The notes under the pieces were generated by a model. The model ran no database searches. It was not told the DNA's origin and saw nothing but the letters and a program-made list of their open reading frames with translations. DNA of 64,000 bases from Obrimoposthia wandeli (lineage: Eukaryota). Each line of letters begins with the position of its first letter. The stretch's first letter is position 1. The translations under genes and the position numbers were made by a program. Shown here piece after piece: positions 9,158 through 64,000 of this stretch. The DNA is taken from assembly GCA_977020255.1 (NCBI GenBank), contig CDROCS010000457.1:434001-498000 (forward strand), written 5' to 3'.

Positions 9158-11105
9158 TGTTGGGGTTTCTATATGAAACTGTTTTTCTAATATAGAACCT
9201 CAGGATGGAGAGCCCCAACGTGAGTTCTATAGAAGCAGGACTTGTAGATGTTTGTGGCCTACTTAATGTTATACTTGCCTGTCTCAATTATTATCTGAAG
9301 GTTTGTTATTTCTAAATTTGAAGGGTCTATAACAACGCTGTCTAGTTGTAGGAAATCGTTTATTTCTAATCACACTAAATTAACACGTCTAAATATGTTC
9401 TAAAAATTACAATACAATTCCTAAGACTTTTGCAAAGTCTCTACATAAGTGGGGATGATCCACGTATCGATTTTATTTTAGGGTTGGTTAGTTACTAGAG
9501 TCTTACTCTAAAATGTGACAAGGTTAAAGTGGTAGGTTTTTTGGGTAGCTAGTTGCTATAAAATGGAGATTGAGTTTAGAGAGCTGTTTGCTCTAAAATA
9601 GTGAAATGATTTTAAATTAGGGAATTGGTTTTTTGTGAGCTGTTTGCTCTAAATTTGGAAAAGATGGTTTAATAAATTTATGAGTAATTTAGAGAGCGGA
9701 TGCTCTAAAATGAGGAATAAGTTTGGAGAGCTTGTTGCTCTAATTTAGGCAAAATCAAAGGACAGTTTCTACGCAATTATGAAACAAATCAAATGTAAAA
9801 TATGGGACGATTATATGAAATCAAGTAACAGTTTATACGCAATTATGAAACAAATTAAATCTTCCACTTTTCTGTTCACAGTATTATCAGTATTTTAATT
9901 CTTAATATTTTTACGATTTTTACTTTCAAATACTGCCACGTTTGGCTCTTACCTCCTCCGAATAACCCGGCGTCCGGTCTCGCTAGGCCTCCTCAATGTC
10001 GGCAGAGTTGCCCTGCTCGGTTCTCGTTCTAGGTGCTGTAGTCGCACGGCTCGGTTCTCGTTCTAGGTGCTGTAGTCGCACTGCTCGATTCTCGTTTTTA
10101 GTGGGATCTTCTTTAGACTCCTAATGTTTTCTGCAAGTCTGAATTTAATTTGGGTTTTTTATCCGGCTGTGTTTGTGACTTACCTTTGTCGAATGGGCCG
10201 GCTGTTTGATTTCAATAGCTAATATATCCTGGCTTTTATTGTTTGGAGCGAGAATGTTTGAATAATTGAGTCAATTACTTCTTATTTTATTATTTGGATC
10301 GAGATGTGTTTGAATAATTTAATCAATTGCTTCTTCTTTTATTATTTGGATAGAGACGTGTTTGAATAATTTAATCAATTGCTTCTTCTTTTATTATTTG
10401 GGTCGAGACGTATTTGAATAATTTAGCCGATTACTTCTTCTTTTATTATTTGGATCGAGACGTGTTTGAATAATTTAGCCGATTACTTCTTGCTTTTAGT
10501 ATTTGGCGCGAGTTGTTCTGCAACAATCGAGTAATTGCGTTAGTATTTATATAAATTTACCTTGGCACTGTCCAGATTCTAATGGGTTTCCTGCTCGTTC
10601 CTCCGCGACTCAATTCTGCAGTCTACTTGCTGCTTGTTGTTCGGAGGTCCTGATCCCGTTAAGTGCTCTCTCAGACACTGATAATGGGCTCGTTTGTTCA
10701 GCTGTTTGGCTCCCAGTGACTCCTACAATTCTTCTGACGAGATTTTCCTTTTAACAACAGTTAATGGCACTTAGCCTAATGTATTTCCTTACCTTGAGAC
10801 TGGATGGCTGGCGTAGTTCCCAGCGTCAATGATTTCTTCAACTTAATTAACTTTTTAATTATCTTCTCTGTTTTGCGGCTAGATCTTTTTGGGGGCCCTT
10901 TACTTTAATTTTAACCTCTATATATATCGCACACTAAACATGACCTTTCAAGGTCCTAATATTTTTCTACAAAAACTATATTTAATTTCAATTTTAATTT
11001 ATATTTAAAATTAATTTAGTCTATATTTAACCTTGCTTTCAAGGATTTTTATTTTAGTATAAAATCAATTAATTATTTAAATTTACTCAAAACCTAATCC
11101 TAACA
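9158..11105 (-). mobile_element. Solo LTR, family A (copy A1)
   Basis: On - it reads tgttaggattagg...gaaaccccaaca. Perfect 4-bp TSD ATTG at 9154-9157 and 11106-11109. Internal ~56-bp tandem repeats at ~10250-10500. Confidence 0.93.
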
Positions 11106-29529: not shown

Positions 29530-31043
29530 TGTTAGGAATAGGTTTTGATAAAATTAAAATGATTAATCATTATTATACTAAAATAAAAATCCTTGAAAGC
29601 AAGGTTATAATTAAGATAAAATTAATTATAAAATTAAAATTATAAAAATAAAATCATAAGGAAAATATTAGGACCACGAAGGTCATGTGTAGTGTGTGAG
29701 TATTTAAGGGATTTTAAACTTTACCAAAAGGCCCCAAAAAATTTAGCTAAAAATAGGAAGAAGTTGATTAACAAGAAAAAAGTTCATTGAAAGAAGAAGC
29801 AAGCTCAGAATTAATTATACGGAGAAGGAAGCAGAGCCGAGACAACGAGCACTCAGACAAGTGCATTAGACCACTTAGCGACGCTGCAAGAAGACAGCGA
29901 CTATCCAAATCCCAGCGCCGAGATCCAGTCTGCGCAAATTAGCGACACCAAAAGAAGACGCTGAGAACCGCCAGCCAGATCCACATCAGCGAGGTAGGTG
30001 CACTTAAAATTAAGTGCAGCATTAATTTTGTTCTAGGACAGGAGAAGCAACTATAAAAAGAAGAAGCCAGTAATTAGAAGACACAAGATTCCAGGGAAAT
30101 AACAGAAAATTAAAATTGAGAACTCGTCGATTTATTCCGAGTAATAACAGAAAATTTCAAATTGAGAACTCGTCGATTTTAATCCGAGTCAGAGAATAGT
30201 AGAAAATAATTAGAGAAGCAGAAAAGGTGGGTCTGCAACGCAGAAGAAGAATTAACTTTCCTTTTTAGAAAAGTAGAGTGGAGCTAAAAGGAGGTATGGT
30301 CAGCATCTGGAACCAGGAATCGAACGAGCCCGGGCGTACGGATATTTGGAGTGAGCCGGAGTCTGCCTACAGATTAGGAAGGTGAGCAGTAACAAACTAG
30401 AGTACGATTTTGCCAATTGTTAAATTCTCATTTTGTTAAAAAGACTCTACAAATTAGAGTACGATTTTGTTAAAGTAAACTCAGTTGTCCATTTTTTGAG
30501 AAAACTAAAGTTGTCCGTTCTAAGTAAGGAATTTGACTTAGAGAATCAGATTGAGATAAAAGAGTTTGATTAAGAAAACTTATTAAAATCAACCCATATT
30601 TTTAGAGCAACCAGCTCTCTAAAATCTAAACTTAACCTATATTCGCCCATAATTTTAGAGCAACAAGCTCTCTAAAATCAGCCATATTTTTGGAGTAAAG
30701 ACTCTAGTAAACAAACCACCCTAAAATAAAATCGATACGTGGATCATCCCCACTTGTGTAGAGACTTTGTGAAAATTTTAGGAATTGTATTGTCATTTTT
30801 AGAACGTAATTAGAACATGTTTAGCTTTGTGTGTTTAGTAATAAACGATTTCCTACAACTAGACAGCGTTGTTATACCCTTCATATTAGAAATAACAAAC
30901 CTTCAGATAAGAATTGAGACAGACAAGCATAACATTAAGTAGGCCACGAACATCTACAAGTCCTGCTTCTATAGAACTCACGTTGGGGCCCTCTATTCAG
31001 AGGTTCTATATTAGAAAAAGAGTTTCATATAGAAACCCCAACA
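29530..31043 (+). repeat. 5' LTR (family A, copy A2)
   Basis: Starts tgttagg and ends ccccaaca. TATA-like tatttaa at 29701; AATAAA at 30840-30845. Confidence 0.92.
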
Positions 31044-31051
31044 TATTAAAT

Positions 31052-31358
31052 TGGTGACCCGAGTGAGGATAGCACTATTTTTTAGAACGTAATTAGAACG
31101 TGTTTAGCTTAGTGTGTTTAGTAATAAACGATTTCCTACAACTAGACAGCGTTGTTATAGACCCTTCAAATTAGAAATAATAAACCTTCAGATAAGAATT
31201 GAGACTGGCAAGCATAACATTAAGTAGGCCACAAACATCTACAAGTCCTGTTGCTATAGAACTCACGTTGGGGCCCTCTATTCAGAGGTTCTATATTAGA
31301 AAAACAGTTTCATATAGAAACCCCAACATATTAAATTGGTGCCCCAAATGAGGATAGC
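31052..31358 (+). promoter_or_regulatory. Two primer-binding sites (31052 and 31337) separated by a duplicated LTR 3' end (~31078-31328); probably elongator tRNA-Met
   Basis: TGGTGACCCGAGTGAGGAT and TGGTGCCCCAAATGAGGAT compared with the complement of the animal elongator tRNA-Met 3' end, TGGTGCCCCGTGTGAGGAT. Each follows ccccaaca-tattaaat. Confidence 0.75.
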
Positions 31359-31660: not shown

Positions 31661-31829
31661 ATCGAGTGGAATTGTTCTCAAACAAAGTCCTCGAATTAAA
31701 TAAATCGGAGTAAATAAATTGAATAAGTTAAGTCGAGTCGACAAAGTCCTCGAATTAAATAAATTGATATAAGAAATCGTAAAATAAGAATTGTGAAATA
31801 AGATAAAAGTAATAAGTAAATTGATATCG

Positions 31830-33800
31830 CAAACGAATACATAATTGATAAAACAACGAATAATAAAAAGGGACCCGCATTTAATACTAGAAGACAAAGA
31901 CAGATTCTTCAGGAAGAGATAAATAATAATAGTTTTAGCCGAATTGAACAGGTTCCTCAAACAGATAAAAAAGTAATAGAAGAAACTAGAATCGAAGAAA
32001 ACGTATCAGAAAGGGACGTTAATCAATCAGCAGTTTCAACCGACAGTTTTGATTTGACTGATTTGTTTGGTGAAATAAACCAAGAAGAAATTGAAGTTAT
32101 TGAAGTTCAAAACCCAGAAGAAATTGAAATTGCCAATCCAGTAGAGGTTGAGGAAGTTCAATTGGATAATATTGAAGAAATAGCTGAGAATATAGCTGAA
32201 AATATGGCTCAAGCAGGAGCTCAACCAGGTAATAACCCAGGAAATAATGTAGGTGGAATGAACGCAGAACAGTTGGCACAAGCCTTGAATGCGACATTGA
32301 GACCCAACTTTTCTGGATCACTGCAGATTACAAAGTTTAAAGGAGATGAGGAAAGTATTTGGGACTTCCTCGCAGAACAATCGAGTTGTGCAGATGTTCA
32401 AGGATGGAACGATAGAGAAAAATGTGTCCGTGTACAGGCACATCTGACCGGATTAGCACTTGAAGTGTATAAACATTTGACACAGCAGAACGTTTAAATT
32501 AGGAAACGTTGGAAAGTGCTTTTATTGGAAAATTGGTATTGGGAGACTTAGCAAAAGTAAATAAGCGAATCATGAGAGAACGGAAACAGAAACATGTTCG
32601 AAAGCGTGAGTTAATACGCGTATGTTTTGAGAACCTTGGCCGCACGAGTGAACCCAAGAAGAATAGTGAGAAATCAGGCAGGTGACCCTGTAGCTCAAGA
32701 AGCACAAGTAGCGGAAGATGAACGGAACCAAAATGAAATGGCAGAAGTTTTGTTAGATATATTTAGAGGAGGACTGAAAAAAGACATTAAAATGTTATTG
32801 GCCGTATCGGATACAAATGATTTTGATAACGCCGTTCGAAAGGCGAGAGAAATTGAGAAAAATATAAAAAATAACGCAGCATTGGCAATTTACGCAATGG
32901 CCGCAGGTTATGGCGATAATACAAAGGTATTTGTGAATAAGACAGAACCGAGTAATTTTCAGAATCGAAATTATGGACAAAATAAGTTCGAAAAAAGAAG
33001 ATGAATCCAGTAACGGAAATAGAGATAATTTCAGAAGTAGAAATATAGATTATTCGAGAGGTAGAAATAATAGCGAGCCTTGGAACAGGAATCGAGACGA
33101 TTCAAGAGGTAGAAGTAGTAATGATTCGTGGAACCGAAATAGAGATGATTCCAGAAATAGATTTGGTAGAGATAATTCAGGAAATCGCCAACCGTGGAGA
33201 GGAGACGATAGGAATTATAACGCAAACAGAGGAGAGCGAAATGACTTCCGATTTGGAAATAATACCGGAAGTAGTGATAGAAGATTCAATAATCGAGGAA
33301 GCAGTTTTGAATCAAATTTCCGAAGAAATGATTTTAGAGGACGCTATGACAATAGACAAAATAGTCGTCGAGTACAGTTCGAAGATGAACAAAATAAGAT
33401 AGATATTCGAAGGAGAATAATGTGTTATACGTGTAAACAGATGGGTCACTACTTGAGAGATTGTACGAGAAGTAAAGAATTCGGAACTAACAGATTTGGA
33501 AATAATAATTTCGGAAATAATAATTTTGGAAATAATTATAGAGGATATAATTCACCCCCGCCGTGGAATAGAGGTGGTGGGTATACTCCACCGCAATGGA
33601 GACCGAATAATCAGTATACGGATAGACAACAGTCACCAGACAGATACAATAATTATGCAGACAGACAGCAAGGAGCTGAGAGATACAATAATTACGTAGG
33701 ACAGCAAGGAGCTGAGAGATATAATAATTCCGGAAGATATAATAACAATAATGTTGACAAGACAAACAGTCGTGAGGGTTCACCAAAACCGAAGGGAAAT
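31830..33800 (+). pseudogene. gag: Gag (frameshifted) with CCHC zinc knuckle and R/N/G-rich repeats
   Basis: Fragments 32054-32497, 32627-33004 and 32973 onward. Capsid-like LQITKFKGDEESIWDFL..W..LTGLALEVY and ESVS*YAYVLRTLA. Knuckle CYTCKQMGHYLRDC at ~33422-33463. Confidence 0.88.
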
Positions 33801-34337: not shown

Positions 34338-34565
34338 CTGAAAATTTCACTTCGATTAATTTCCGGACAGATTATGCATGAAAAACTTAACGTATACCAA
34401 ACAATGAAAACAGTTCGAAAAAAGTTGGCCGAGAAACTTGAAATTGATGGAATGAATATGTTGTTCCATTATAAAGGGAGATCACTAGATGATGAGGACG
34501 TACCAGTCGAGTGTGGATATCCGATAGGAAACGAATTAGAGGAAAAGATTGATGTCATCACTGTA
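34338..34565 (+). CDS. SUMO/ubiquitin-like domain within the Gag-extended ORF
   Basis: LKISLRLISGQIMHEKLNVYQTMKTVRKKLAEKLEIDGMNMLFHYKGRSLDDEDVPVECG..EKIDV follows the beta-grasp pattern and has SUMO-like F..G..L.D...P...IDV. Confidence 0.7.
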
Positions 34566-35095: not shown

Positions 35096-35222
35096 CGGAA
35101 GTATATTACGAAATGTTCTAACTGCACCTCAAACTGATGAGGAGAGACATCAAAGAATTGGGCAGTTAGAAGCGTCATTAGAGCAGTATAGTGCATAGCG
35201 AAATGAAGATATCAGAGGTGAT

Positions 35223-35630
35223 ATGAATTCGGAAGCTCCAAGTAGTAAATATATACTTACGGGAATTCTCAGACAAGTAAAGCCGAAGTTGTTCAAAATG
35301 TACAAAGATGAAACAACCGATATAACAGACAATTTGACTAGAGCAGTTAGATCACAAATGTCTGCAGTGAAGAGAATGACTGCGAATCAAGGATACCATG
35401 TATCGATAGACAAATTTTACGATGGCGAAGTTTTAGCGAGATTATGAGGAAACCAGACTACAAATAAAAAGCTAATCACAGCGATTACATACCTATGTTT
35501 CCAATTGACGGAAAGAACGAGCCAACCCCACGAAGTCAAACAAGGAATAAATGAAGCGATGTATCTGATCGAGAACGTATTGCAGCGACGAATTGTCGAA
35601 AACGGAGGTTGGGCAAAATTAAGCGACTAC
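35223..35630 (+). pseudogene. Bcl-2-like domain (one internal TGA)
   Basis: RL*GNQTTNKKLITAITYLC sits at a BH1-like position. NVLQRRIVENGGWAKL matches BH2 (cf. RHLHTWIQDNGGWDAF). Same frame as the Gag ORF and the env signal peptide. Confidence 0.55.
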
Positions 35631-35738
35631 GCTAAAACCATTGTGGAAATGAATGAAGACGATGATGAACAATGTCATGAGAATCGTCAAAGAGAAAATA
35701 AACAATACCGTCCGAAAGAAAGAAACAATCAACCAAAT

Positions 35739-37545
35739 ATGTCCACAACGTTGATGATGATGATGTTAGTAATGTTTATGGGAATGCAACAGGCATCAGC
35801 GTTAGTAGCATACGACTGTAGCGTACCACAGATGGGACAAAAGTATTCACTGTCCAGAATCACAGCCATCAAAATTAGAAATTAAAGGTGTTGAAAACTA
35901 TGTCGTGTATTAGGATGTTGATAAAATACAAGTACAAGTGAAGGAATGTTCAGTTCATTCAAGTTATCACGAATTTTACTGTGGTCATAGAAGTTTCATG
36001 TCGGAAATCACACCTACCACACCGTACAAACCACACAAGGTCTTTCCGAGAGATTGCGAAGACGCATTTCGAACAGGAAAAATAGAAATAGATAAGAATT
36101 ACACACCTGACGTAAAAGTTGGGGTGAGACGATACGAAACAGTCACGAGAGTAGGACGACGATGGGCTGATGGATCTTGTGACGGAGGAACAAAAAACGT
36201 GCGTGGTACCAAAGTAACAGCCTTAGTAATGGACGTAACTTACCAGATCGAATTAAAAACATGGACCGCAAATTTTGATAAAAATACAAAACGAATGATG
36301 AAGTATCCGGAATGTAGATTGACAGATACATCTTGTCATACAGGTTAATCCACAATTGTGTATCACGTGGATACAAAACAATGCTCATTAGTATTTTTGA
36401 AAGAAATTAAATTTAATAAAATAAAAGGGTTCCTGTATAATAAAGATGGAGAAGGATTTCATAACACAACAGGACCAATTCCTACGACGCTGACACGTAC
36501 ATTGTTAATGGCAACATCAACAGAAGAAGGATTGATATTTATTAAAAAGAGAAATAAAGCGCGATGCGGAATGACTGTTAGTACTACAAACTATCCTGGA
36601 ATAGTTTTGTCAAGAGAATCAATAGCATTGGCAGGAACCAAGTTAAAACCTAGAGATATGCAGCTACACACGTATTTTAATAATAAAATTGATTTCTATT
36701 ATCATAAAGGATTGATGCAAATGGAACAGTTATATCGGATGATGATTGAGAGAGATTGTCAGTTAAACAAAGAGATTGTAAGAACAAAGTTAGCATTAGC
36801 TATTACGAATCCGGACATGGTAGTACCATTATTACCCTTAGATGAAGGAGTATTTGCTAAAACCATGGGAGAGGTACTGTATACTTACAAGTGTAAAAAA
36901 GTAGAAGTACAGTTGAGAAAAACAGACCGATGTACGAGTGAATTGGCAGTAACGCATAATTTAAAAGAACTCTTTGTTGAACCAATCACGAGAATGATAC
37001 TTCCAAAAGACACTCCAACCAAAGAAATCAGCTGCTCTAATATAATGGCACCTGAATATCAGATGACGAATGATCTATGGATAACGCTACCTGACCGAAA
37101 ACAAACAACAACTTCAAAGATGATAAAAATGACGACTCTTAAAGGAAAAATGAAATTCGAAGCGATAAAGAATATGGAAAATGTAGGTCTATACAATGAG
37201 AAAGACTTAAAAGCAGCCTGGAACGAAATAATGTTTCCAGTAAGAAGGGCCAGAGTACTTACGGAGATGGTACATCGTGCATTACCGCCAGGAGCTAGAT
37301 ATGCGAATTTTGATATGTTATTGTCGCCAAGTCATTTCAAGGAAGCAGCACATCAGACATTTAGAAAGATGTGGGGGAAATTCCTTGTTTTAGGACAGTT
37401 ATTTTCAGGTATTTATGTTATAATTAAATTTGTGCAGGTAATTATAGCCCAGGTGTTGTCTACGTATAGTTTATACAGGATAACCGGAATCACCTGGCAA
37501 CTTATAATTGGATGTTTTCCATTTTTAGCTAAATATATAATGCAC
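35739..37545 (+). pseudogene. env: Envelope-like class III fusion glycoprotein (chuvirus/Jingchuvirales G-like); one frameshift (~35860-35930) and one stop (36346)
   Basis: Signal peptide MSTTLMMMMLVMFMGMQQASA followed by LVAYDC. Motifs CSVHSSYHEFYCGHRS, YFNNKIDFYYH, CQLNKEIVRTKLALAITNP..GVFAKTMGEVLYTYKCKKVEVQLRKTDRCTSELAV..LFVEPITRMI. C-terminal hydrophobic block WGKFLVLGQLFSGIYVIIKFV...LIIGCFPFL. Confidence 0.82.
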
Positions 37546-37914
37546 CATCATCACGAGAACGAGTTGCGAGCCCTCAAGAAGGAGCAACATCAAACGAGAA
37601 CCATGATACGAGAACCAAGAAACTACCGAGACGACAACGACGACGATAACGATAGTCCAGGAGAATATGCGAAGATACCAAATACAGGACAAGCAAAGAA
37701 TCCATTACAAGACAAGGAAGAAGTGGAGCCAAACCTATATCCAATGAAGGAATTAAAGGAAGAGAAGGAAAAGTTCAAGAGAAGCATTTTAATGATAAGA
37801 TGGCCTAGAGTGAACTACAGTGAGATTCCACAAGCAGAAGAAAGAGACAAAAAAGATAATTCCAGAAGTATTCTGAAGTCTAGGATATCCAATGAGAATC
37901 CGAATGCTCCACCA

Positions 37915-38200
37915 CAGGTAGCAGTAACACTGAACGGAAGAGAATACCTTGTCGAAGTTGATACTGGATCTGCAGTATCAGTGCTGAGTAAAGAAATCTT
38001 GTCATCAAAAGAATTAGGAGCAGTATGTCCTAGAAAACAGACATTTGTTAACGTAAATGGTACAGATGTAGTATCAGAAGGAACACTGAAATGTAAATTA
38101 ATTATTGATGGAAGACCATTGCAGTTAAATGCTAGAATATTCACAGATTGTGGTAATCCAGTCATGATTCGGATGGACGTAATACGAATGTTTGAAGGAA
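37915..38200 (+). CDS. Retropepsin aspartic protease, copy 1
   Basis: VTLNGREYLVEVDTGSAVSVL (DTG at 37960)...FVNVNG...PVMIRMDVI. Confidence 0.85.
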
Positions 38201-38450
38201 TAATAATATTACCAAACAACAAGAGTTCAAATAACAACAGTTCAGTGAGAGATATAAAGATGTTGAGAGGACCTACAGTTGAAAAGGAAAAATACACTAG
38301 TTTCTGTATGGGAGATCCGTACCGAAACAGGAAACAGGAAGTGTTAGTAAAGTCGATACTTCATTACAAAGGAGTAGACAACGGACCACAAGCCATGGGG
38401 AGGAGGAAAATAACATATGATAGTATAGGAGAAACAGCTCCTTTTAGAAT

Positions 38451-39445
38451 CGAGAGGAATAGACGAAGGTCACTAGAACCGTACCATTCAAAAGAAATGA
38501 CACACAAAATGGCGAGAACGGGTTTACAAATGTTAAACGGAGATACGACAAAAAACTCTGGTTCTGAGAAAGTAGTACGATGCGTATATTGTAGAGTAAA
38601 GTTTAGAAATTGGGAAAACAATGATAACCCAATGAAACGTCATAAAAGAAAAGCACCAACATGTCCATTCCTCCTGAAATTGAGAACTGCAAACGAACCA
38701 AAAATTCAAACTGGAAAGGCACCCGATTTTGACAACAGTGACGAGATTCCAGAAGGAGGAACAGTTCAAATAATAGGCATGTGATAACAAATAGTCGAAT
38801 TGAAGACGTATTCGAAGTAATGCGAGAAATAAACGAATGTGACGAACAATATCGAGAGGTAACATTTGAAGATCCGAGACTTAAAAAATTGGCAAAAAAG
38901 GGACTTTTTGCTATAAAAAAGGATGGTAAAGACGTAATTAAATGCCACAAATGTAAAAAAGAACGAATTATTGACAGATATACTCTTGAGTTACCTAAGA
39001 AAACTTTACATCATGAATTTTGCGAGTTTGTAGTTTTAAAATCAAAATAAAGCAAAAAGAACAGAAAACTGAATGTATAGTCGAATACCAAATCACACGG
39101 AAAGAGATTTTGGCTCAACAAGACACACCGGTAGTGTCATTCGTGAGAAGACTATATCCAAAAGAAGCAGAAAGAATCAGAGATTTGGTAGAATTAAAAA
39201 TAAAAACTACGCGAAACGGATACGGATCAATTTTTGAATTACTACGAGATAAAGATGACAGTTCAATTGAAACAAAAGAGAAAGAGTACATAAATGAACT
39301 AGAATACATGCTAGAAGATCTGGAATGCGCAGTTTGTATGGTCAACAAAGTAGAAGTTGCCTTTTTACCATGTAGACATGTGAGAACATGCCGGAGACGT
39401 GCGAAGGAAATGGTAACATGTCCGATTTGTAGAAGAATAATAGAT
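38451..39445 (+). pseudogene. IAP-like module: BIR - BIR - RING (frameshifted)
   Basis: BIR1 RRRSL..MARTG..VVRCVYCRVKFRNWENNDNPMKRHKRKAPTCPF (CX2CX16HX6C). BIR2-like REVTF..LAKKGLF..DVIKCHKC..HHEFCEFV. IAP-type RING CAVCMVNKVEVAFLPCRHVRTCRRR..CPICR, with one Cys to Arg change. Confidence 0.88.
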
Positions 39446-39559
39446 CGACAAGTGAGAAATATTAGATTTCACTATCCAAACAAAATAAGTGGACCGACAA
39501 AATGTAATAATTCGATAAATACGATATACCATATGGGAAATATAAATAGAGCACAGCGA

Positions 39560-42500
39560 CCAGCAGCTATCATTAGAGCAAATAATTTAAAAGTAAAAGC
39601 CTTAATTGATACAGGTGCTGTAGCTTTGATAGTAAGTGAGGATTGTTTGACAGAGGAACAGAAACAAACAATGGCAGAACCAGATCAATTCTTTGTATCG
39701 GCCAATGGAGACCCTGTAAAAGTGACGGGAATATTACCCTGTACATTTATAATTAGACGTAATACGATCACTATATCAGTTAGAATCATGAGAGAATGTC
39801 CTGAACCTACAATTTTAGGAATGGATGTATTATCACAACTCAAAGGGATAAGTATCGATTTACAAGATCCAAGATTGAAGGATAGCACATCAAATAGACA
39901 AATAAACCAAATCGATGTAATTATAGAAAATCCTATAAAAATCGGTAAAAGATCACAATTTCTTATTCAAGGTCACACATTATCAGAAGATAAAGGACCA
40001 GTTGTGTTCGAACCATCACGGGATTTCATAGAGAAATACGAATTATCAATTGTGAGTACAGTATGTCTGATCGAAAACCACAAAATATCAGTTAGACTGA
40101 TGAATACAACCAACAATGACATCCTGTTATACAGAGGAATGAGGTTGGTAAAGATAGCACAGATAGAGAATTCCACTGTGTGTGCTATGAAACTCGATAA
40201 AGACACGAATGATTACGAAGAAATAGTAATCCAATCAGAAAGACTGACAACCAGAGAAAAGAAACAATTACTCGATCTAATACATAAATTTCCAAAAGTA
40301 ATTGCAAAAAATCCGTATGACATAGGAGAAACACCTGTCATAAAACACACAATACCACTGACAGAAGATAAAGTAGTCAGAAGAAGACCATATCGAGTAC
40401 CATTACAGTTACAAGATGAAGTCAAAAGTCAGATTGAAGATATGTCTAGAACAAGAGTAATTAGACCGAGTTTTTCACCATTTTCAGCACCTGTAGTGTT
40501 ACTAAAAAAAGAAGGATGGAAAAATAAGATTCTGTAAAGATTTCAGAGAACTGAACAAGATCACAAGAAAAGATGTGTATCCATTACCTAGAATTGAAGA
40601 GATGCTTGATAAATTAGGTGATTCAGACTATTTTACGACATTGGATTTGCAGAGTGGATACTGGCTAATCGAGATAGAGGAATAGGATAAATACAAAACA
40701 GCCTTTTCCTGCGGAGATGGACTATACGAATGCGAAAAATGCCATTCGGACTAACAAGAGCGCCAGCAACATTTCAGCGTTGCATGAATTTTGTACTCGC
40801 ATCGTGTGCAAACACGATGGTTTATATCGATGACATAATAATATTTTCTAAGACGTTCGAAGAACATCTAAAAAATCTTGAAGTTGTATTTAAAAGACTG
40901 GAAAACGCTAAATTAAAAGTTAAACCTACAAAATGCGAATGGGCTAAAGAGCGAGTAACATTTTTAGGACATATAGTATCGAAAGAAGGCATCCGACCTG
41001 ATCCAGCAAAGATCGAGAAAGTAAAAGCGCATCCAGTGCCAAAGACTGTTAAGGAAATACATAGTTTTTTAGGTCTTGCGAATTATTATAGACGATTTGC
41101 TGAACATTTTTCAGATATATCAACACCATTGAGAAAGTTGACGAGGGAAGATGAGAAGTTCATATGGGGAAAAGAAGCACAACAAGCGTTCGAGCATTCA
41201 AAGGAAAGACTGATAAAAGCACCAATATTAGCGTTTCCAGATATAAACCGACAATTAATACTGATGACGGATGCAAGTAACTATGCTGTAGTAGCAGTAT
41301 TGGGACAAGAGGATGACGAAGGAAGAGAACACGTCATCGCGTATGCGAGTAGAGGGTTAAACAGAGCCGAAAGAGGATACTCTGTTATTGAGAAGGAATG
41401 TATAGCCATAGTATATTCATGTAGACAGTACAGACACTACTTGCTAGGACAAAATGTATTCCTGTATACAGATCACAAACCACTACAGTTCTTGTACAAA
41501 CATAGAGACGATATGAACAGATTAAACAGATGGTTTCTGAATTTGTCCGAGTTTGATCTAGAAATCCGTTATAGAACCGGAAAGTGGAATGGCAACGCAG
41601 ATTGTTTGTCAAGATTAATAAATGTAGACGAGAAAGGAAACATAATTCCGGAAAAAGGTCAAGATGAAGTCAACGACCAAAAAGGAGAAGCAAATCTCCT
41701 AACGATTTTGCTGAAGACGCGTAAAATAGACAAAGAGATCATCAAGGAATAGAAAGAAGATGAAGAACTGAGTCTAATCAAAGAATTGTTAGTGAAAGGA
41801 GATATAAATGATGAAATGACGAAAAAATACTCGATAAAAGAAGGAATCTTGTATATTGTCAACAATGTCGGCAATATAGTAGTAGTAATTCCGAAGTCAT
41901 TGAAAACAGCAGTGATGATCCAGTACCACGATGGAACACTGGGAGGACATCTGTCAGGACGAAAGACAATAGCCAGAATCAAAGAGAAGTACCATTGGGA
42001 TGGGATGGAAGATGACATAAAACAATGGTGTAAACAATGTAAAGTATGTTTAACCAGAAAAGACACAGGAACTCGTACTAAAGTTCCACGGAAACCAATG
42101 CCAGTTCCTTTGGCACCAATGGAATTCACAGCGATGGATATATTGGGACCATTGAGAGAATCGAGTAAAGGAAATAAGTACGTCATAGTATTTACGGACT
42201 GCATGACGAGATGGGTAGAAGCATACCCCATGCAAAACCAGAAGGCTGAAACAATAGCGCAGATCTTAGTAGAAGAGATAATATTTCGATACGGAGTGCC
42301 TAGAAAGTTATTAACGGATCAAGGCAAGAACTTCACTGGATAAGTAATAAAAACAGTATCGAAGATATTCGGAATCATGAAGTAACAAACTTCACCATAT
42401 CACCCACAAACCGATGGTCTAGTATAAGGGTTTAATAAAACTTTATGTATGATGGTACAATCTTATTGCTCCGATAAGCAAGAAGATTGGGATAAGTATT

Positions 42501-43720: not shown

Positions 43721-46460
43721 ATGCCACCAATAAGTGAGATAATTCCAGACATGTTATACCTCGGAAATGTGGAAGACGCCACAGACGAAAAGAAACTGTT
43801 GGAAAAATGAATAACATATGTGATCAATGTTACAATGAATCACGAATCGCGATACAAGACAATCAGAGCTATGACATTAAGAGTGAAAGACTCAATGGAG
43901 GCTAATCTTCTCGAATGGTTCGGAGAAACAAACGAGATAATTTACAAAGAACTCCAAAACCAAGGAAAAGTATTGGTACATTGTCAGAAAGGAATCTCTA
44001 GATCAGCAACCTTGGTATTAGCATATCTAATAAAGAATAGGCGAATGCAGGTACTAGTGTTAGGTTTAGGAATTAGGAAATTAAAATAATTAGTCGATTT
44101 TATACTAAAATAAAAATCCTTGAAAGCAAGGTCGAAAATTAAATTAAATATTAATTTTAAAATTCAAAATTAAAATTATGGAAGTTAGGATAAAAATTAG
44201 GAGGACCACGATGGTCGTGTATAGTGTGTGATATATAAGGTTAGAGTTAATTAACCCAAAAGTGCAAAAAACGGGAATAATTTAGAATCTGCTAACGTCA
44301 GCAGAAAGAAAAACGTCAGCAGAAAAAGGTAAGCACATTCACGTGCAATTAATTTAGATCGATTTAGTTAACAGCAGTCGCCGAGCCCCGGAAAAGCAGA
44401 AGAAGTCAAGAGTGCTGATTGACAGCACATAGTCAACTAGTCAACTATATAAGTCGTGGAACTCATATCACAAGTTGACGAAGTAGAAATAGCCGAAATC
44501 CAAATTGCCAAGTTGACTGCAGAGGATCAACAATTGCCTGCATTAATTGTTTAAGAAGCATATTCCTACAAACAAAAAGACCAGAACGAAATCAATATTC
44601 CAGGTCTACTGAGAGGAAAATTGGTAAGTCAGATTTGGATTTGACTTCATTGAAATAATCAATAATTTAGATTGTCGCAGTTGATTGATTTAGAAGCCTA
44701 AAGTTTGATAAAAAGGAGCAAATAAATTGTTAAAGAAGTTCGCAGTTGATTTATTTAGAAGCCTAAAGTTTGATAAAAAGGAGCAAATAAATTGTTAAAG
44801 AAGTTCGCAGTTGATTGATTTAAAAGCCTAAAGTTTGATAAAAAGGAGCCAATAAATTGTTAAAGAAGTTCGCAGTTGATTTATTTAGAAGCCTAAAGTT
44901 TGATAAAAAGGAGCCAATAAATTATTAAAGAAGTTCGCAGTTGATTTATTTAGAAGCCTAAAGTTTGATAAAAAGGAGCAAATAAATTGTTAAAGAAGTT
45001 CGCAGTTGATTGATTAAGAAGCCTGCTCATTTCCAACGGTTGCATTCGAAGACGATCCCACAAGTTCGTCAGTACTACATACGGACTCCAGTACCGGATT
45101 GACGTTCGAGCAACGTATAGGTGAGAAACGGTTTAAAATAATCATTGCCCCTAGTTGGCAATTAGGATAAACTCATTGTCCCTAGTTGGCAATTCGGATT
45201 TGTAACATATTCAAACAAAATCATTGTCCCTAGTTGGCAATTCGGATTTGTAACATATTCAAACAAAATCATTGTCCCTAGTTGACAATTAGGATTGTCT
45301 TTAACAAAATCATTGTCCCTAGTTGACAATTAGGATTTGACTCTAATCTAGGTTGAACTGTGTCTAATATTCGTTGTAATATTGTTTCGAATTTGTGTAA
45401 ACTAATATCATTTTGCATTTGTGTTAAACTAATATCATTTCGAATTTGTGTTGAACTAATATCATTTTGAATTTGTTTTAAACTAATATCATTTTGAATT
45501 GTGTTAAACTAATATCATTTCGAATTTGTGTTAAACTAATATCACTTCGAATTTGTGCTAAACTAATATCATTTCGAATTTGTGTTAAATAATCATTGTC
45601 CCTAGTTGACAATTCGGAGCAAATACTCATTGTCCCACGTTGACAATTCGGAGCAAATACTCATTGTCCCAAGTTGACAATTCGGATAACGTATTCATTG
45701 TCCATAGTTGACAATTAGGCTTTTATAAGAATCATTGTCCACAGTTGACAATTCGTGGTTAAATTCACAATCATAGAATTGCCAAGTCAAGAAACTTTAC
45801 CCACACGTTCTAAGTTAGGTTGAAGAAATTTAAGAGAGTTGTGTTATAAATTAACCAACCTAGGAAGAAGATTGCATTGCACCTTTGTCTTCATAAGAAT
45901 AAAGGTTTAACCCCAACATCCAAACCGATAGCAGAGTAAAGTTATTAAGAAATCTATAACACGAGCTTATTCTCGAGTTAGAAGAATAACTCTAAAATCT
46001 CGATCACCCCGAACGTAAAATCGATACGTGGTTCATCCCCACTCGTTGTAGAGACTTACAGAAGTCTTAGGAATTTTTACTATACTTTTTAGAAAATACG
46101 TACATAAACGTATTGTTGTGTTTAGTTTCGTGAATTACCAATAAACGATTTCCTACATTAGAACAAGTCGTTTTTTCACCCTTCTGATTAAGAGACATCA
46201 AATCAAATACCTTCAGATAATACAAGAGATAGGCAACCATAACACTAAGTAGGCCACGACCAACTTTAAGACCTGCTTCTATTCGAACTCACGTTGGGGC
46301 CCTCCGCATTCAAGAGGATCTGTACCAAGTTTCGTATAGAAACCCCAACACTAGAAGCGCTGAAATATCTACATGAAAGACGAAGTATCGCGAACCCAAA
46401 CCTTAATTTTTTGGGACAATTGTCAAATTACCAACTTCTGTTACAAGAACGGAGACGGAT
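43721..46460 (+). pseudogene. Dual-specificity phosphatase in the pol reading frame, split by a solo LTR (43721-44057 + 46355-46460)
   Basis: PISEIIPDMLYLGN..*ITYVINVT..VKDSMEANL..VLVHCQKGISRSATLVLAYLIKNRRMQVL|EALKYLHERRSIANPNLNFLGQL. The HCX5R motif and general-acid Asp are intact. Confidence 0.93.
44058..46350 (+). mobile_element. Solo LTR, family A (copy A3), inserted in the DUSP gene
   Basis: tgttagg...ccccaaca with TSD CTAG at 44054-44057 and 46351-46354. Removing it restores MQVLEALKYL. It contains ~58-bp, ~27-bp and attgtccctagttg-based tandem arrays. Confidence 0.96.
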
Positions 46461-46514
46461 GGATGACAAAAGAATTTCCTCCAATCACTATCGTTTACCG
46501 GATTATTCTTAGCA

Positions 46515-46965
46515 GGAATCGACAAAATCACCCAGATAATGCCGAAAGTATTTCTATGTCACTCAGGAGATATAGATACTGCTGGATTAAAGTTCCACAG
46601 TATCACTCGAGTGATTAACATTGTTGAAGTCGAAAACGAGATAATCAGTATATGTCAAAATACTGAAGATGACACTACACGTTATATACATGCTTCAAAT
46701 CGGGAGGTAACCGACGCACAACAACACCTGGGGAAGTTGACTCAAACTATTCAAGCCGAAGTCACAGAAGGAAACGGCGTTCTGATATATCACAAAAAGG
46801 TACAATGTTAGCACCTACCATGGGTGTATCCTTGTTGGTAGAGTACCATGGTCATACACCGGAGAAAGCGATGGTCTACATCAAACTGAATAGACCAGAT
46901 ACGGAATTCAAACCGTTACTCGTTCGAGAAATAGAGAAATACTCCGAAAGAAGGAAGCAACAACG
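46515..46965 (+). pseudogene. Second DUSP-fold domain, predicted catalytically dead
   Basis: KITQIMPKVFLC..SITRVINIV..GNGVLIYHKKVQ/LAPTMGVSLLVEYHGHTPEKAMVYIKLNRP is collinear with the first DUSP, but the catalytic Cys, Arg and Asp are absent. Confidence 0.65.
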
Positions 46966-49741: not shown

Positions 49742-50060
49742 ATGTCTGAGGAATGCCCAATATGTTTGGAAGATATAACCGAACAAAGAACAAGACCCAA
49801 TACCTGCAACCACCTACACCACGAGGAATGTTTATCATAATGGATCACAACTTATGGAGAGTTCCCCCATCCAATATACCCTCGTTGCCCTGTATGCAGA
49901 AGACAATTCACAAAGTTCATCATAATAGAACCCAACCAAGAGGATGTAGATGTACAGGTGGTATTCTGTTGGAAGAATTTGAGAGAGTGTTGGTGTTTCA
50001 GAACGACAAGATCCGACCGCTTTTGTGTAAACATCACAAAACCACTAACCCTCAATCGAG
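49742..50060 (+). pseudogene. RING-H2 ORF 1 (TAA at 49838)
   Basis: MSEECPICLEDI..TCNHLHHEECLS*WI..RCPVCR. Missed by the ORF track because of the stop. Confidence 0.85.
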
Positions 50061-50090
50061 CCCAAATTCAACATCACCCCTCTCACAGCA

Positions 50091-50396
50091 ATGTCTGGAG
50101 AATGTTCCATCTGCTACGAGAACATCGTGGACCTTTACACCAAACCCAACAACTGCGAACACAAATTCCATGTCCAATGCCTCGAGACATAGATCCCAGT
50201 TGTCAACAGCAACAAGCCCCTCGACTACCCAACCTGCCCGATGTGCAGGGCATCCTTCTCGGTACACTTCGTATACAACCGAGACTGCCTTCAAGCAGTG
50301 GTACCCATCGTACACTACTGGAAGGACATCTGCGACTGCTGGTGTATGTTCTGCGCGGAGGAGCGACGCACAGGCCAGCCCGACAGCCAACAATAA
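50091..50396 (+). pseudogene. RING-H2 ORF 2 (TAG at the conserved Trp, 50190)
   Basis: MSGECSICYENI..NCEHKFHVQCLET*IP..TCPMCR..HYWKDICDCWCMFC. Confidence 0.85.
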
Positions 50397-50692
50397 TGGA
50401 AGGTAACTTTTTGACATAAACGTGACATCATGAACTAACCCTGTGTATCGCATACCGCGGTAAAATAGCTACCATAATTGTAATCATATTTGTATAATAT
50501 TGTGAAACTGTAAAATTACCTTTACCATTTTTATGTGTGATGTTTATTGTACTGGGAAACCCCTAAAGACAAATTTATACTTAGAATGCGAAAAACATAC
50601 CCAAAGAAAAGACAAAAATCGGTAGGTTAAAATATTAAGGCTTAAAATCATATAAACTTCAAATAAAAAAGTGATTTAACCGATACACCATT

Positions 50693-51507: not shown

Positions 51508-53078
51508 TGTTAGGATTAGGTTTTGATAAAATTAAAATAATTAATCATTTTTATACTAAAATAAAAATCCTTGAAAGCAAGGTTATAATTAAGATAAAAT
51601 TCATTATAAAATTAAAATTATAAAAATAAAACCATCGGGAAAATATTAGGACCACGAAGGTCATGTGTAAGCGTGTGCGATATATATAGATGTTAAAATA
51701 AAAGTAAAGGGCCCCCAAAAAACAGAATTAGCCGGTTAGAAAAAAGCCCAAGGAAAATTGAATTAAGCGAGTCAATTAAGGAAATTATCAGATCGATTCA
51801 TTGTGAGAATCGAGTCAGTTGCCGAGACAGACGAAATCCAACAGCAATCCATTGCTGAACAGAGCCGCGCCGGGAGCAGAGACAGCCATCTGTAAGTAAG
51901 TGCTTTTTATTAAGTGCTCTACTTAAAATCGTTCCAGGAGCTAAAGTAAACAATAAACAAAAAAGAAAAACACTTACTAAGCCAAAAAAAGGAGAAACCC
52001 AATTTCCAGGAAAGCACTTAGCAATCGGGGCTAAAGAAAAAGAAAGATAAATTAAGTACTTTTAAAAAGCACTTACGTAACAATTTCCAGGAAAGCTATT
52101 AGTGCTTCGGGAAGGCCAGGAAAATTAGAATTGCATAAATAGAGAAGTGCAAAAAAGAAAATAGAACGTAGCCAGAGAATCGCGCCTCATCTGACCTCAG
52201 AGGAAAAGCAAGAAGGTAAATCGGCGACTAAGAAAGCTAAGTTATTTCCTTTAGGAGCCAGAAAAATTAGAAGCCACAAATTGGAATCGGAACAAACAGA
52301 GGGCATCGGAGCGATCAGGAAAGATCTCTTCTAGCAACCAGATTCGAGCAAACAGAGGGCATCAGAGCGAGCAGACCAAATCTTTTCCTACAACTAGACC
52401 TGGGCAAACCTAGGACCGCGTCAGCCGACTCCGTTGATCGACGCCAATAAAGCAAATAAAGGTAAAAAACAGCTGACGATTTAGATCCTAAATAAAGGAT
52501 TGTGTTTTATTGAATCTCCATAAGAGAAATTTAGATCCTAAATAAAGGATTGTATTTTATTGAATCTCTATAAGGAAATTGTAGATCCTAAATAAAGGAT
52601 TGTATTTTATCGAATCTCCATAAGGGAAAATTAGATCCTAAATAAAGGAGAACTAGAAAACGGATTTGACCCTAAACTACCCATAGTTTTAGAGCAACTA
52701 GCACTCCAAAATCAGTCCCCATTTTTAGAGTAAAGACTCCAGTAACTAAACAAACCGAAAATAAAATCGATACGTGGATCATCCCCACTTGTGTAGAGAC
52801 TTTGTGAAAGTCTTAGGAATTGTATTGTCAATTTTAGAACGTAATTAGAACGTGTTTCACTTAGTGTGTTTAGTAATAAACGATTTCCTACAACTAGACA
52901 GCGTTGTTATAGACCCTTCAAATTTAGAAATAACAAACCTTCAGATAAGAATTGAGACAGGCAAGCATAACATTAAGTAGGCCACAAACATCTACAAGTC
53001 CTGCTTCTATAGAACTCACGTTGGGGCTCTCCGTCTGAGGATCTATATTAGAAACAGTTTCATATAGAAACCCCAACA
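51508..53078 (+). repeat. 3' LTR-position copy of family A (A4)
   Basis: tgttagg...ccccaaca, with ~55-bp tandem repeats at 52480-52650. The centre is unlike the 5' LTR. Confidence 0.88.
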
Positions 53079-53871
53079 CTTACATATAATACATTTTTGA
53101 GTAACGACGAATTGAATTTTTAAGTACATTTTGAATAAAAGACGAATTGAAAATTTAAATATATTTCAAGTAAAAGACGTTTGAATTTTAAGTACATTTC
53201 GAGTAATCCGACGTTATTGAATTATTCGGCAATAACATATTAAATTAAAGAGTTAGATAGACGTGTAGAAAGTCACGGAGAATAATTTGAAGGGTGATTA
53301 TAGCAGGAGGCGTATAAAAGTATGCGAATAGAAAAGTATCGGTTCTATTGTGTATTCTTTAATAATTTTAGGAAGTTTTAAGTGTGCTAAGGTAAATATA
53401 GTTATTTTAGTGAAATCGATAGAAGATTCATTCCGAGTTAAATTCTCTGTAAAATTCGTGTACCCCCTAACATATAGATTAGCCGAGGGACAACCAACGA
53501 GGCAATATTCCACGTGCTGACATATTCCGAGGTGTATTGTCTACGTCGATTGGTCCCGGCTCTGTTTCATCGACATTCGGTTTTAGTGTTTCCAGACGCT
53601 TCCTACATTAAAGCTAACTCAGCTGATGAACTATCCACCCCGCATTTCATCACACCACGCTTGCTTTGAGGCCCTACTAGCTATTCTGTGAATACAACTC
53701 TTTGAACACACCACAAAACAATGAGACACAAAACCTTCAGATTGAGAATAGAATTAAGTAGGACACGAACAGGTAGGCCACATCCATCTGTAAGCCCTAT
53801 TGCTACAAAACTCACGTTGGAGGCCTCCATACGAGGATCTAATTGAAGAGTTTCAAATGGTAACCCCAACA
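53079..53871 (+). mobile_element. 3' part of an LTR of related family B
   Basis: Matches the reverse complement of 61818-62550 and ends taaccccaaca. Confidence 0.85.
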
Positions 53872-59526: not shown

Positions 59527-62500
59527 TTTTGGGGTTTCTAATTGAAACTCATATTCAAGTAGATCCTTATATGGAAGCCCCCAACGTGAGTTCAGTAGCA
59601 ATATTGCTTACATATGGATGTGGCCTACCTGTTCGTGTCTTACTTAATTCTAGTATTAGGATTCGGTTTTGGTAAAATTAAATAATTAATTGAATTTATA
59701 GTAAAATAAAAATCCTTGAAAACAAGGTCATAATTAAAATAAAGTTTAGATAAGAATTAAATTATTGAAAATTAAAATGGTATTTAGAAATATTTAAGGA
59801 CCACGAAGGTCATGTATGATGCGTAATATATAAGAAGATTAAAGCTACTGAAAAGGGCCCCAAAAAATAATCATCAACGAAAATAGAAGATATCAATTAA
59901 CCCTCAATACGCGGGAACCGAGATAACTCGGTCCCGACAAATACGCATACAGTGACGGGAACCGAGTTAACTCGTTTTTAGACAGGGGATTTCCCATCGA
60001 TTTCCATGGTGATGATATACGTATTATCTAAGTTATTTTAATGTCTATAAACAAAATCAATATGAAAACCTAGAGCGACATGGAAACCCGATAATGCAGG
60101 ATGATAATACGTACTGTATTAAATACATAGCACAGTGAGGGTTAAGGTCAGCGAAACACAGAGGATATCAAATTAGACCAGCGAAAATCAGAAGTTAAAT
60201 TCGTGACATCAATTAGGATCTCTAGAAAATCGTAATCTCGTGTAAGACACACTGGGAGCCAAGACAGCTGCAGCCAGAGTCATCAATTTCAGCATCAAGG
60301 TAAGTGCACTTGGTTGGTGTGCAACTGAACTGACATATTTTTGACAGTTCCCACCGAAGCCGGAGACAACTGACGAGTGAATCATCGCGCCAGTAAGAAA
60401 CTCGCGGGAAAAACACTAGCGCTACTACAAGAAAATCCATTACAGCAAAAAGAAGCGAGCGGGAAATCGACAGAGGTAATAGCACTTAAATTAAGTGAAA
60501 ATTTAATTGACAGTATTTCAGGATATATAAAAGGAGGAAATATCGTAGCGGAACCATAACCTAGTGTGTAGAAAAGAGAAACAGTTTATAATTCACTGTT
60601 ACCAGCACTCGCAGAAAATTAGAGAAACAGAACACAGAAATCGTGTCGTAAACTACCAGAAGACAGAATAGGTAAGAAAGCTGCGAATACCAAGAGATAA
60701 ATCATTAAAGAAGAAGAAACTCTGCAGAATCAGCCGTCCATCGAAGTAGCAGAGGACCTCGAACACGAGACGTCGGATCAGGAGCCAACTTACGCATTAC
60801 ACGGGATCTTGTACTCTGGAATTGTCGATTGGATGTGAGCCGAAGTAATTGTCGGTAATTGAAGTTTTGATTAAGTAAAAGTGAATTTTGATTTGAAGTT
60901 TTGATTAAGTAAAAGTGAATTTTGATTTGAAGTTTTGATTAAGTAAAAGTGAAATTTAATTGAAGTTTGATTAAATTAAAGTGAAATTTTGATCTGAAGT
61001 TTTGATTAAGTAAAAGTGAAATTTAATTTGAAGTTTGATTAAGTTAAAGTGAAATTTGATTAGAAGTTTTGATTAGATTAAAGTGAATTTTGATTTGAAG
61101 TTTTGATTAAGTAAAAGTGAGATTTAATTGAAGTTTGATTAAATTAAAGTGAAAGTTTGATTTGAAGTTTTGATTAAGTAAAAGTGAAAATTTGATTTAA
61201 CGTTTTGATTAAATTGGTTGAATTAAATTGGATTTGTAAAAGGGAAGTTTTGATTTAAATTGGATAAAAACAAAAGTGAAGATTTGATTAAATCGGATAA
61301 AATTAAACGCGAAAATTATAGAAGTTTTAATTTTGACTTCAACTAATCAAGTCGTGAGTTTTGAAGTTAAAAGTGAAGATTGTGAGTGTTCTAAAATCAA
61401 ACCAAATTTTTAGACAAAAAAAATTATAACCTTGAACGTAACCGCAAATTGGAGTAAAGACTCTAAGAAAGTAATCGAACCTGAACTTAAAATCGATACG
61501 TGGTTCATCCCCACTTGTGTAGAGACTTACAGAAGTCTTAGGAATTTGATTGTAACTTTTTAGAAATACGTACTTAAACGTATTGCTTCGTGTTAGTCTA
61601 GTGTGTTAATAATAAACGATTTCCTACAACTAGAAAGCATTGTTCTAAACCCTTCAGATTAAGACAAAACAACAAACCTTCAGATAAGAAATAGAGACAG
61701 GCAACCATAGCATTAAGTAGGCCACAACCATCCTTAAGATCTGCTTCTATAGAACTCACGTTGGGGCCCTCCACAGTCAGAGAATCTATAAGTTTCATAT
61801 AGAAACCCCAACACTAGTCTCAATCTGAAAGTTTTGTGTTTATTGTTTTGTGGTGTATTCAAGTAGTTGTGTTCACATAATAACTAGTAGGGCCCCAAAG
61901 CTAGTGTGGTGTGATGTAACGTAGGATGGACAGTTTATCAGCTGAGTTAGCTTTTATGTCGGAAGGGTCTGGCAACACCAAGACCGAATTTTGATGAAAC
62001 CAAGTCGAGACCAATTGATGCAGACAATACTCCTTTGAATCTGTCAGCACTTGGAATATTGCATCGTTGGTTGTCCATCGGCTAATCTATATGTTAGGGG
62101 GCACAAGAATTTCACAAAGAATTTAATTCGGAATGAATCTTCTATCGATTTCGCTAAATTAACTATATTTAACTTAGCACACTTAAAACTTCCTAAAATT
62201 ATTAAAGAATACATAATAGAACCGATACTTTTCTATTCGCATACTTTTATACGCCTCCTGCTATAATCACCCTTCAAATTATTCCCCGTGCCTTTCTACA
62301 CGTCTATCTAACTCTTTAATTTAATATGTTATTGCCGAATAATTCAATAACGTCGAATTCCTCGAAATGTACTTAAAATTCAAACGTCTTTTACTTGAAA
62401 TATATTTAAATTTTCAATTCGTCTTTTATTCAAAATGTACTTAAAATTAAATTTGTTTTTACTCAAAAATATTCTTAAAATTCAATTCTTCTTTACTCAG

Positions 62501-63156: not shown

Positions 63157-63476
63157 CTATAATCGTCAATCAAAATTGATTTTGAACTAAATGAAATAAA
63201 GTATTAATATGTAAATTTATATGTCAGATTTCATATCACAGTTATGTTATAATTATATTTATTTTTATCTTTATTAATAAAATATGCTTTCGTATCTGAA
63301 ATAGGATTTGGTGTCTTGCTTTAGATATCCTCAGATATCAAACTTTTATGGCTAAATAATTAAATATTTTATACGAAATGCATGAAGCACTATAGGTAGA
63401 AACTAAAAATTATAATTTGAATTAAAAATAGAAGATGTGAAAATAAAAATTATATAAAATAACATTTTATTAAATT

Positions 63477-64000
63477 TGTTGGGGTTTCTATATGTAACTC
63501 TGTGTTCTAATATAGATCCTCTTTAGTGGAGGGCCCCAACGTGAGTTCTATAGAAGCAGGACTTAAGGATGGTTGTGGCCTACTTAATGTTATGCTTGCC
63601 TGTCTCAATTCTTATCTGAATGTTTTTGTTGTGTCTTAATCTGAAGGGTTTAGAACAATGCTTTCTAGTTGTAGGAAATCGTTTATTTATTAACACACTA
63701 GACTAACACGAATCAATACGTTTAAGTACGTATCTCTAAAAAGTTACAATAAAATTCCTAAGACTTCTGTAAGTCTCTACACAGGTGGGGATGAACCATG
63801 TATCGATTTTACTTTAGGTTTGATTAATCTTTTAGAGTCTTTACTCCAAATTGTGGGTAAGTTCAAGGTTATAGACTCTATAGGGCTGGTTGCTCTATAA
63901 GTATAGTTTGGTTTTAGAAAACTCACAATCTTCACTTTAACTTCAAAACTCACGAATTGATTTCACAATTTTAACTCCAAACTAATCAAGTTAAACTCAA
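63477..64000 (-). mobile_element. Family A LTR 3' end (copy A6), runs off the window
   Basis: tgttggggtttctatatg... closest to A5. No PBS adjacent. Confidence 0.9.

Follow-up and report, generated by a model that had tools for sequence, protein, structure and literature searches.

The window analysed here, a stretch of 64,000 nucleotides from Obrimoposthia wandeli (assembly GCA_977020255.1, contig CDROCS010000457.1, positions 434,001–498,000, forward strand), contains on its + strand a segment encoding a Bcl-2-like helical domain (35244–35630) that is split by a TGA codon. The segment is one domain in the polyprotein of a 23.5-kb gypsy long terminal repeat (LTR) retroelement, which spans positions 29530–53078. 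The observations described below make it probable that this is a conserved domain of Bcl-2 ancestry in a polyprotein of the type known from the planarian element Burro and that it would be tethered to the endoplasmic reticulum (ER) and dampen cell death. The copy in the window is dead.

Position of the domain in the retroelement

Read from position 35100, the frame of the segment passes through QYSA, a TAG (35196–35198), 82 sense codons, the TGA (35445–35447), GNQTTNKKLITAITYLC and LQRRIVENGGW; in all comparisons the stops of the window copy were read through as X. The sequence is exactly as given in a preliminary description of this DNA, including the absence of the segment from the list of open reading frames (ATG start, at least 100 residues). 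Across all six frames, the window contains the tripeptide GGW only twice.

A Pfam scan of 22 frames of the window and five sister pieces gives the order of the element on the + strand as gag, ubiquitin-like, Bcl-2-like, mononegavirus-type Env, protease, BIR, degenerate BIR, RING, protease, reverse transcriptase (RT), RNase H, integrase and two phosphatases. Both LTR boundaries and the protease–RT–RNase H–integrase order typical of gypsy elements are present. Set against natural sister pieces, the region from gag through integrase is interrupted in the window copy by many stops and changes of frame; these, together with the insertion of a solo LTR, identify it as a dead copy.

Sister copies and the in-frame stop codons

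A first look at the 1.35-Gb genome yielded 12,263 candidate copies, of which 150 were scored, with 92–100% identity to the segment. A stop-free match is found in 137 of these 150, a share that is biased upward because the rows were picked by score. The segment is coding sequence and not a product of chance. Codons were compared in 56 distinct sister loci, after removal of four duplicates and the window itself, and in a second set of 30 loci that were selected by Env and not by the Bcl-2-like domain. The Env rows of the 56-locus comparison were disturbed by the frameshifts of the window copy and were not used.

At the site of the TGA, all 56 sister loci have a sense codon, one base away from TGA in 49 of them and two bases away in seven, and none has Trp; the Env-selected loci likewise have sense codons in 30 out of 30 and Trp in none. 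Where the window copy has the TAG, which truncates its polyprotein ahead of the domain, a sense codon stands in 53 of the 56 loci (one stop, two gaps) and in 29 of the 30 (one gap). The NGGW motif (35601–35612), to whose conservation among copies the preliminary description had tied its proposal, is kept in 54 of the 56 and 29 of the 30 loci. In the Env-selected set the domain lies upstream of Env at every locus (30/30) and falls entirely within the open Env frame at 22, and at 13 loci the 500 upstream codons are open as well. Around Env, open frames extend to 4,645 residues where the match is stop-free and to 5,301 residues where it includes one stop, and in sister stretches the region from protease to phosphatase forms a single frame. 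The frame shared with Env, the long open frames and the sense codons in the sister copies therefore place the domain in one polyprotein and mark the TGA as private decay of the window copy. Working copies, as judged from these frames, encode a single polyprotein of ∼5,000 residues that runs from gag to pol.

The preliminary description had regarded the segment as a hidden gene in which the TGA could be a mutated Trp codon. A stand-alone gene of this kind, completed by mutation or readthrough and acting at mitochondria, might be suggested by the ATG at 35223 ahead of the domain and the hydrophobic segment after it, but neither Trp nor TGA occurs at the site in any of the 56 and 30 copies, the window copy is also disrupted by many further stops, by frameshifts and by the solo LTR, and the frame of the sister copies is continuous from gag. 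With sense codons other than Trp in all copies, reading the TGA as Trp or as a readthrough codon is ruled out, and a stand-alone gene is very improbable; the segment is a domain of the LTR-element polyprotein.

Searches started from divergent copies led back to the same family, at 84–92% identity. In a search for other element families, 20 stretches were fetched through ubiquitin-like matches, and none of them contains the domain, Env or gag. A search of sequencing runs returned four matching runs from one study, with no RNA run among the matches listed. On contig C6225 (57768–66159), a fragment of a divergent element (79% identical to the window) that includes the Bcl-2-like domain is present as three head-to-tail copies of 2.67 kb that are 99.9–100% alike, which is either a recent duplication or an assembly artefact.

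Selection on the domain

Ratios of non-synonymous to synonymous divergence (dN/dS) were calculated pairwise for the 30 Env-selected copies, with ranges from codon bootstraps, the pairs not being independent of each other. The domain shows a dN/dS of 0.13 (0.08–0.21), compared with 0.25 (0.17–0.37) for the preceding linker and 0.21 for the Env stretch. For five divergent copies, which were found via the domain itself, measured against the 30, the values are 0.08 (0.04–0.14) for the domain and 0.35 (0.24–0.50) for the linker. The most constrained part of the domain is the half that includes the Bcl-2 homology (BH) regions BH1 and BH2, at 0.11 among the 30 copies and 0.04 between the divergent copies and the 30, the latter figure being obtained near saturation of the synonymous distance. 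These ratios indicate that the domain is under purifying selection and was useful to the element during its spread.

Probable relationship to the Bcl-2 family

An ancestry in the Bcl-2 family is likely, resting on a set of weak, concordant signals from profiles, alignments and a seeded structure model. The window copy has no Pfam match at an E-value of 0.1 and no sequence match in the Protein Data Bank (PDB) at an E-value of 10, and the best score of any copy against PF00452 is 20.6 bits, against a Pfam cut-off of 31.4. With a profile built from Bcl-2 exons of the host, the domain scores above shuffled sequences and above other windows. In an alignment with the host exons, for which 8 of the 15 PF00452 loci outside the element were used, the register is held from BH1 to BH2 at an identity of 14–19% in the joint alignment. 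For the copies themselves, 23 of the 30 Env-selected loci were aligned; of the seven left out, three are frameshifted and the rest are stop-bearing or were not included. The label ‘Bcl-2-like domain’ of the preliminary description is thus upheld by these concordant signals, but with scores below the Pfam cut-off and without the NWGR motif. The host genome itself holds ten PF00452 matches above the cut-off, some with a degenerate BH1, and one of them (L031) lies in a single frame of 210 residues.

In the structure prediction that the preliminary description had proposed, AlphaFold gives a Bcl-2 fold only when seeded with the host Bcl-2 rows; the unseeded model, with a mean confidence (pLDDT) of 42, is uninformative and has no Bcl-2 chain among the 50 VIA rows. 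A Foldseek search with the unseeded model places Bcl-xL at rank 4 and A1 at rank 6, amid globins and with E-values near 1. In the fold list of the seeded model, cellular Bcl-2 proteins and anti-apoptotic viral ones stand above A52, B14, N1 and A46, which are at ranks 26–42.

No outside homologues were found in word-indexed protein searches or in metagenome contigs, and a search of 1.84 billion representatives gave a single match, to a tandem repeat that is unrelated. These negatives, the sub-threshold scores and the failure of the unseeded model would also fit a helical spacer unrelated to Bcl-2, in which NGGW and the weak profile matches arose by convergence, as would a PDB profile match of the C-terminal stretch of the domain to a stathmin repeat (E-value 0.0011), which was judged to be due to chance. 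A spacer is nevertheless improbable, as the host-exon profile exceeds both shuffles and other windows, the match is in register from BH1 to BH2, and BCL2 has been annotated independently at the same place in Burro. That the domain of the retroelement adopts a Bcl-2 fold is, by comparison, highly probable.

BH motifs and binding chemistry

The domain resembles cellular Bcl-2 proteins (PF00452) in helix pattern, in the BH1-to-BH2 register and in the final GGW, and differs from them by the absence of NWGR, of the first BH2 Trp and of a classic tail anchor. In register with the host exons, the TGA falls six columns short of the BH1 Trp, so that the earlier assignment of the TGA to the BH1 Trp position does not hold. 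According to the host-exon alignments and a column census, the BH1 position in the window reads TNKK (35460–35471) where NWGR is expected, and these positions hold T, N/S, K, K in all copies of two sets (23/23 and 10/10). The same copies all have the final Trp of BH2, that of the BH2-like NGGW, and none has the first.

The Gly and Arg of NWGR are reported to matter for BH3 binding, and ORFV125, which has SPGR, to bind Puma ∼250-fold more weakly (PMC9027176). Because NWGR is absent and these two residues have such a role, a canonical BH3-groove chemistry is unlikely for the domain. Inhibition of cell death is still possible, since DPV022, which has no BH motifs, is reported still to bind Bak, Bax and Bim (PMC11209288).

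Proposed membrane topology and possible function

Beyond GGW, the first hydrophobic segment begins 46 residues on and is the predicted internal signal peptide of Env (35748–35801), with a hydropathy of 2.06 over 13 residues and an ASA end immediately before LVAYDC; the Env family match (PF24664) begins here. All 30 Env copies have AYDC; the hydropathy is at least 1.8 in 26 of them, and small residues occupy positions −1 and −3 in 28. One transmembrane segment was found in Env in the five copies examined. In viral polyproteins with an internal signal, the part before the signal stays in the cytosol and Env goes to the ER lumen, and the parts after the Env anchor, here protease, BIR, RING and RT, are back in the cytosol. 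By analogy, the domain in working copies would face the cytosol, with the Env signal peptide tethering it to the ER membrane; once cut, the signal would keep the domain, alone or together with Gag, at the ER. On the strength of these sequence features such a topology is moderately probable. The proposed action at mitochondria found no support: the only adjoining membrane segment looks like an Env signal peptide, and a tether to the ER would therefore fit the anatomy better.

The IAP-type companion mentioned in the preliminary description is indeed present, as BIR and RING domains within the same element. The domain would likely dampen host cell death jointly with this BIR-RING module. An anti-death role in which the domain binds host Bcl-2-family proteins in a non-canonical way is plausible, if somewhat short of probable.

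Alternatively, the Bcl-2 fold may be reused for purposes beyond BH3 binding, either as a membrane-tethered, leader- or matrix-like link between Gag and Env at the ER or as an adaptor against innate-immune signalling. Vaccinia A46, A52, B14 and N1 are Bcl-2 folds that act against innate-immune signalling, and their presence in the fold list is in line with this alternative, as are the fixed place of the domain between Gag and the Env signal and the absence of NWGR and the first BH2 Trp from every copy in the face of the strongest constraint in just this BH1-BH2 half. On the other hand, cellular Bcl-2 proteins and anti-apoptotic viral ones have the higher ranks against the seeded model, BIR and RING domains occur in the same polyprotein, and viral Bcl-2 proteins without BH motifs are able to bind Bak or Bax. 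It is rather doubtful that the retroelement keeps a constrained Bcl-2 fold, devoid of the BH3-binding signature, as an ER-tethered Env leader with a non-apoptotic job in assembly or in the damping of immune signals; such a domain would parallel, in a retroviral-type element, the non-apoptotic Bcl-2 folds of poxviruses. Should it function in spite of the missing NWGR, the domain would be a retroelement-borne regulator of death or signalling.

Comparison with Burro and viral Bcl-2 proteins

The planarian Burro (GYPSM1) elements encode, in one polyprotein of ∼5,000 residues, Gag, a Ubi2/SUMO-like domain, BCL2, an in-frame mononegavirus-related env, protease, BIR, RING and RT–RNase H–integrase, and interference with host apoptosis was presented as a possibility awaiting experiment (PMC6431247). 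Burro transcripts are reported to be up upon loss of PIWI silencing (PMC8532177), and PMC11410931 refers to Burro in passing. The present element shares with Burro the huge polyprotein, Gag with a CCHC knuckle, a ubiquitin-like domain (putative here, its match being below the cut-off), the BCL2-like domain, an Env in frame between gag and pol, protease, BIR, RING, the RT–RNase H–integrase order and its thousands of genomic candidates. By this published domain order, it has the architecture of a Burro-type element. It differs in its length (23.5 kb including an insert of 2.3 kb, as opposed to >30 kb), in the one CCHC knuckle found as opposed to two or three, and in its protease and phosphatase domains, two of each kind, that the section of PMC6431247 concerned does not name. 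The MATH, ankyrin and dUTPase-like domains of Burro-1 from S. mediterranea have no counterpart in the Pfam scan, a method less sensitive than the published HHpred. Judged by its shorter length, the lack of these three matches and its two phosphatases, the element is not Burro-1 itself.

Like the viral Bcl-2 proteins KsBcl-2, A179L, F1L, M11L and DPV022, some of which lack BH motifs and which rank high against the seeded model, the domain is a strongly diverged fold on a selfish element. Those proteins are stand-alone genes with tested activity, whereas the present domain is part of a retroelement polyprotein and its activity is putative. A literature search, with subscription papers mostly outside its coverage, found no functional study of a Burro-type Bcl-2-like domain. 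The layout of ubiquitin-like domain, BCL2, env and protease is already in print for Burro; the selection figures and the missing NWGR are small additions. The locus itself is a single dead copy in a genome with thousands of candidates, and the family is one more lineage of the Burro type, with a Bcl-2-like domain, a BIR-RING module and phosphatases that are kept by selection.

Other features of the element and the window

Both LTRs that bound the element start with TGTTAGG and end with CCCCAACA. The 5′ LTR (29530–31328, +), of the TG...CA type, ends at 31043; a second copy of 285 bp of it extends to 31328 and is followed by TGG. This partial duplicate of the LTR end lies within 30796–31358, with a TGG-starting tract after each end. 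The 3′ LTR (51508–53078, +) differs from the 5′ LTR by a Kimura two-parameter distance of 0.05–0.10 in three alignable parts, and the element is flanked by ATTA and CTTA.

Within the element, all on the + strand, a broken gag region (31820–33467; PF00098, E-value 1e-4) with one CCHC knuckle (33423–33467) is followed by the weak ubiquitin-like domain (34362–34517; PF00240, E-value 0.059, below the cut-off). Elsewhere in the genome, contigs C2592, C1456, C4682, C2050 and C1351 carry ubiquitin/SUMO-like arrays with a spacing of ∼270 bases and short separate frames, beside which polyubiquitin-type arrays of 228 bases exist. Env, a Monjiviricetes-type fusion glycoprotein (35748–37641), is in three pieces, with a frameshift near 35850 and further stops (PF24664, E-values 0.008, 5e-15 and 2e-65). 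The region 37918–39847 comprises a weak aspartic protease, BIR (38491–38673, E-value 3.7e-12), a degenerate BIR (38865–38963), RING (39317–39448, E-value 4.3e-10) and a second aspartic protease (39554–39847), and in a sister stretch the whole protease–BIR–RING–protease region is a single frame. RT, RNase H and integrase (40691–42343) are broken by stops. Two dual-specificity phosphatase domains follow (43811–46799), the first of them split by the solo LTR (44058–46350), which belongs to a related subfamily (73–79% identity to the element LTRs) and has CTAG on either side.

Between 46673 and 51376, before the 3′ LTR, several frames have no good Pfam match, including one of 496 residues with hydrophobic stretches; the same holds for a frame rich in Cys and His (49841–50419). 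A second solo-LTR-like copy with CTAG flanks lies at ∼59656–61813, and LTR-like pieces occur at 9158–9513 (− strand), 53773–53871 and 63469–63850 (− strand). At 5760–6659 there is a 150-nt tandem repeat, the inner copies of which are 100% identical.
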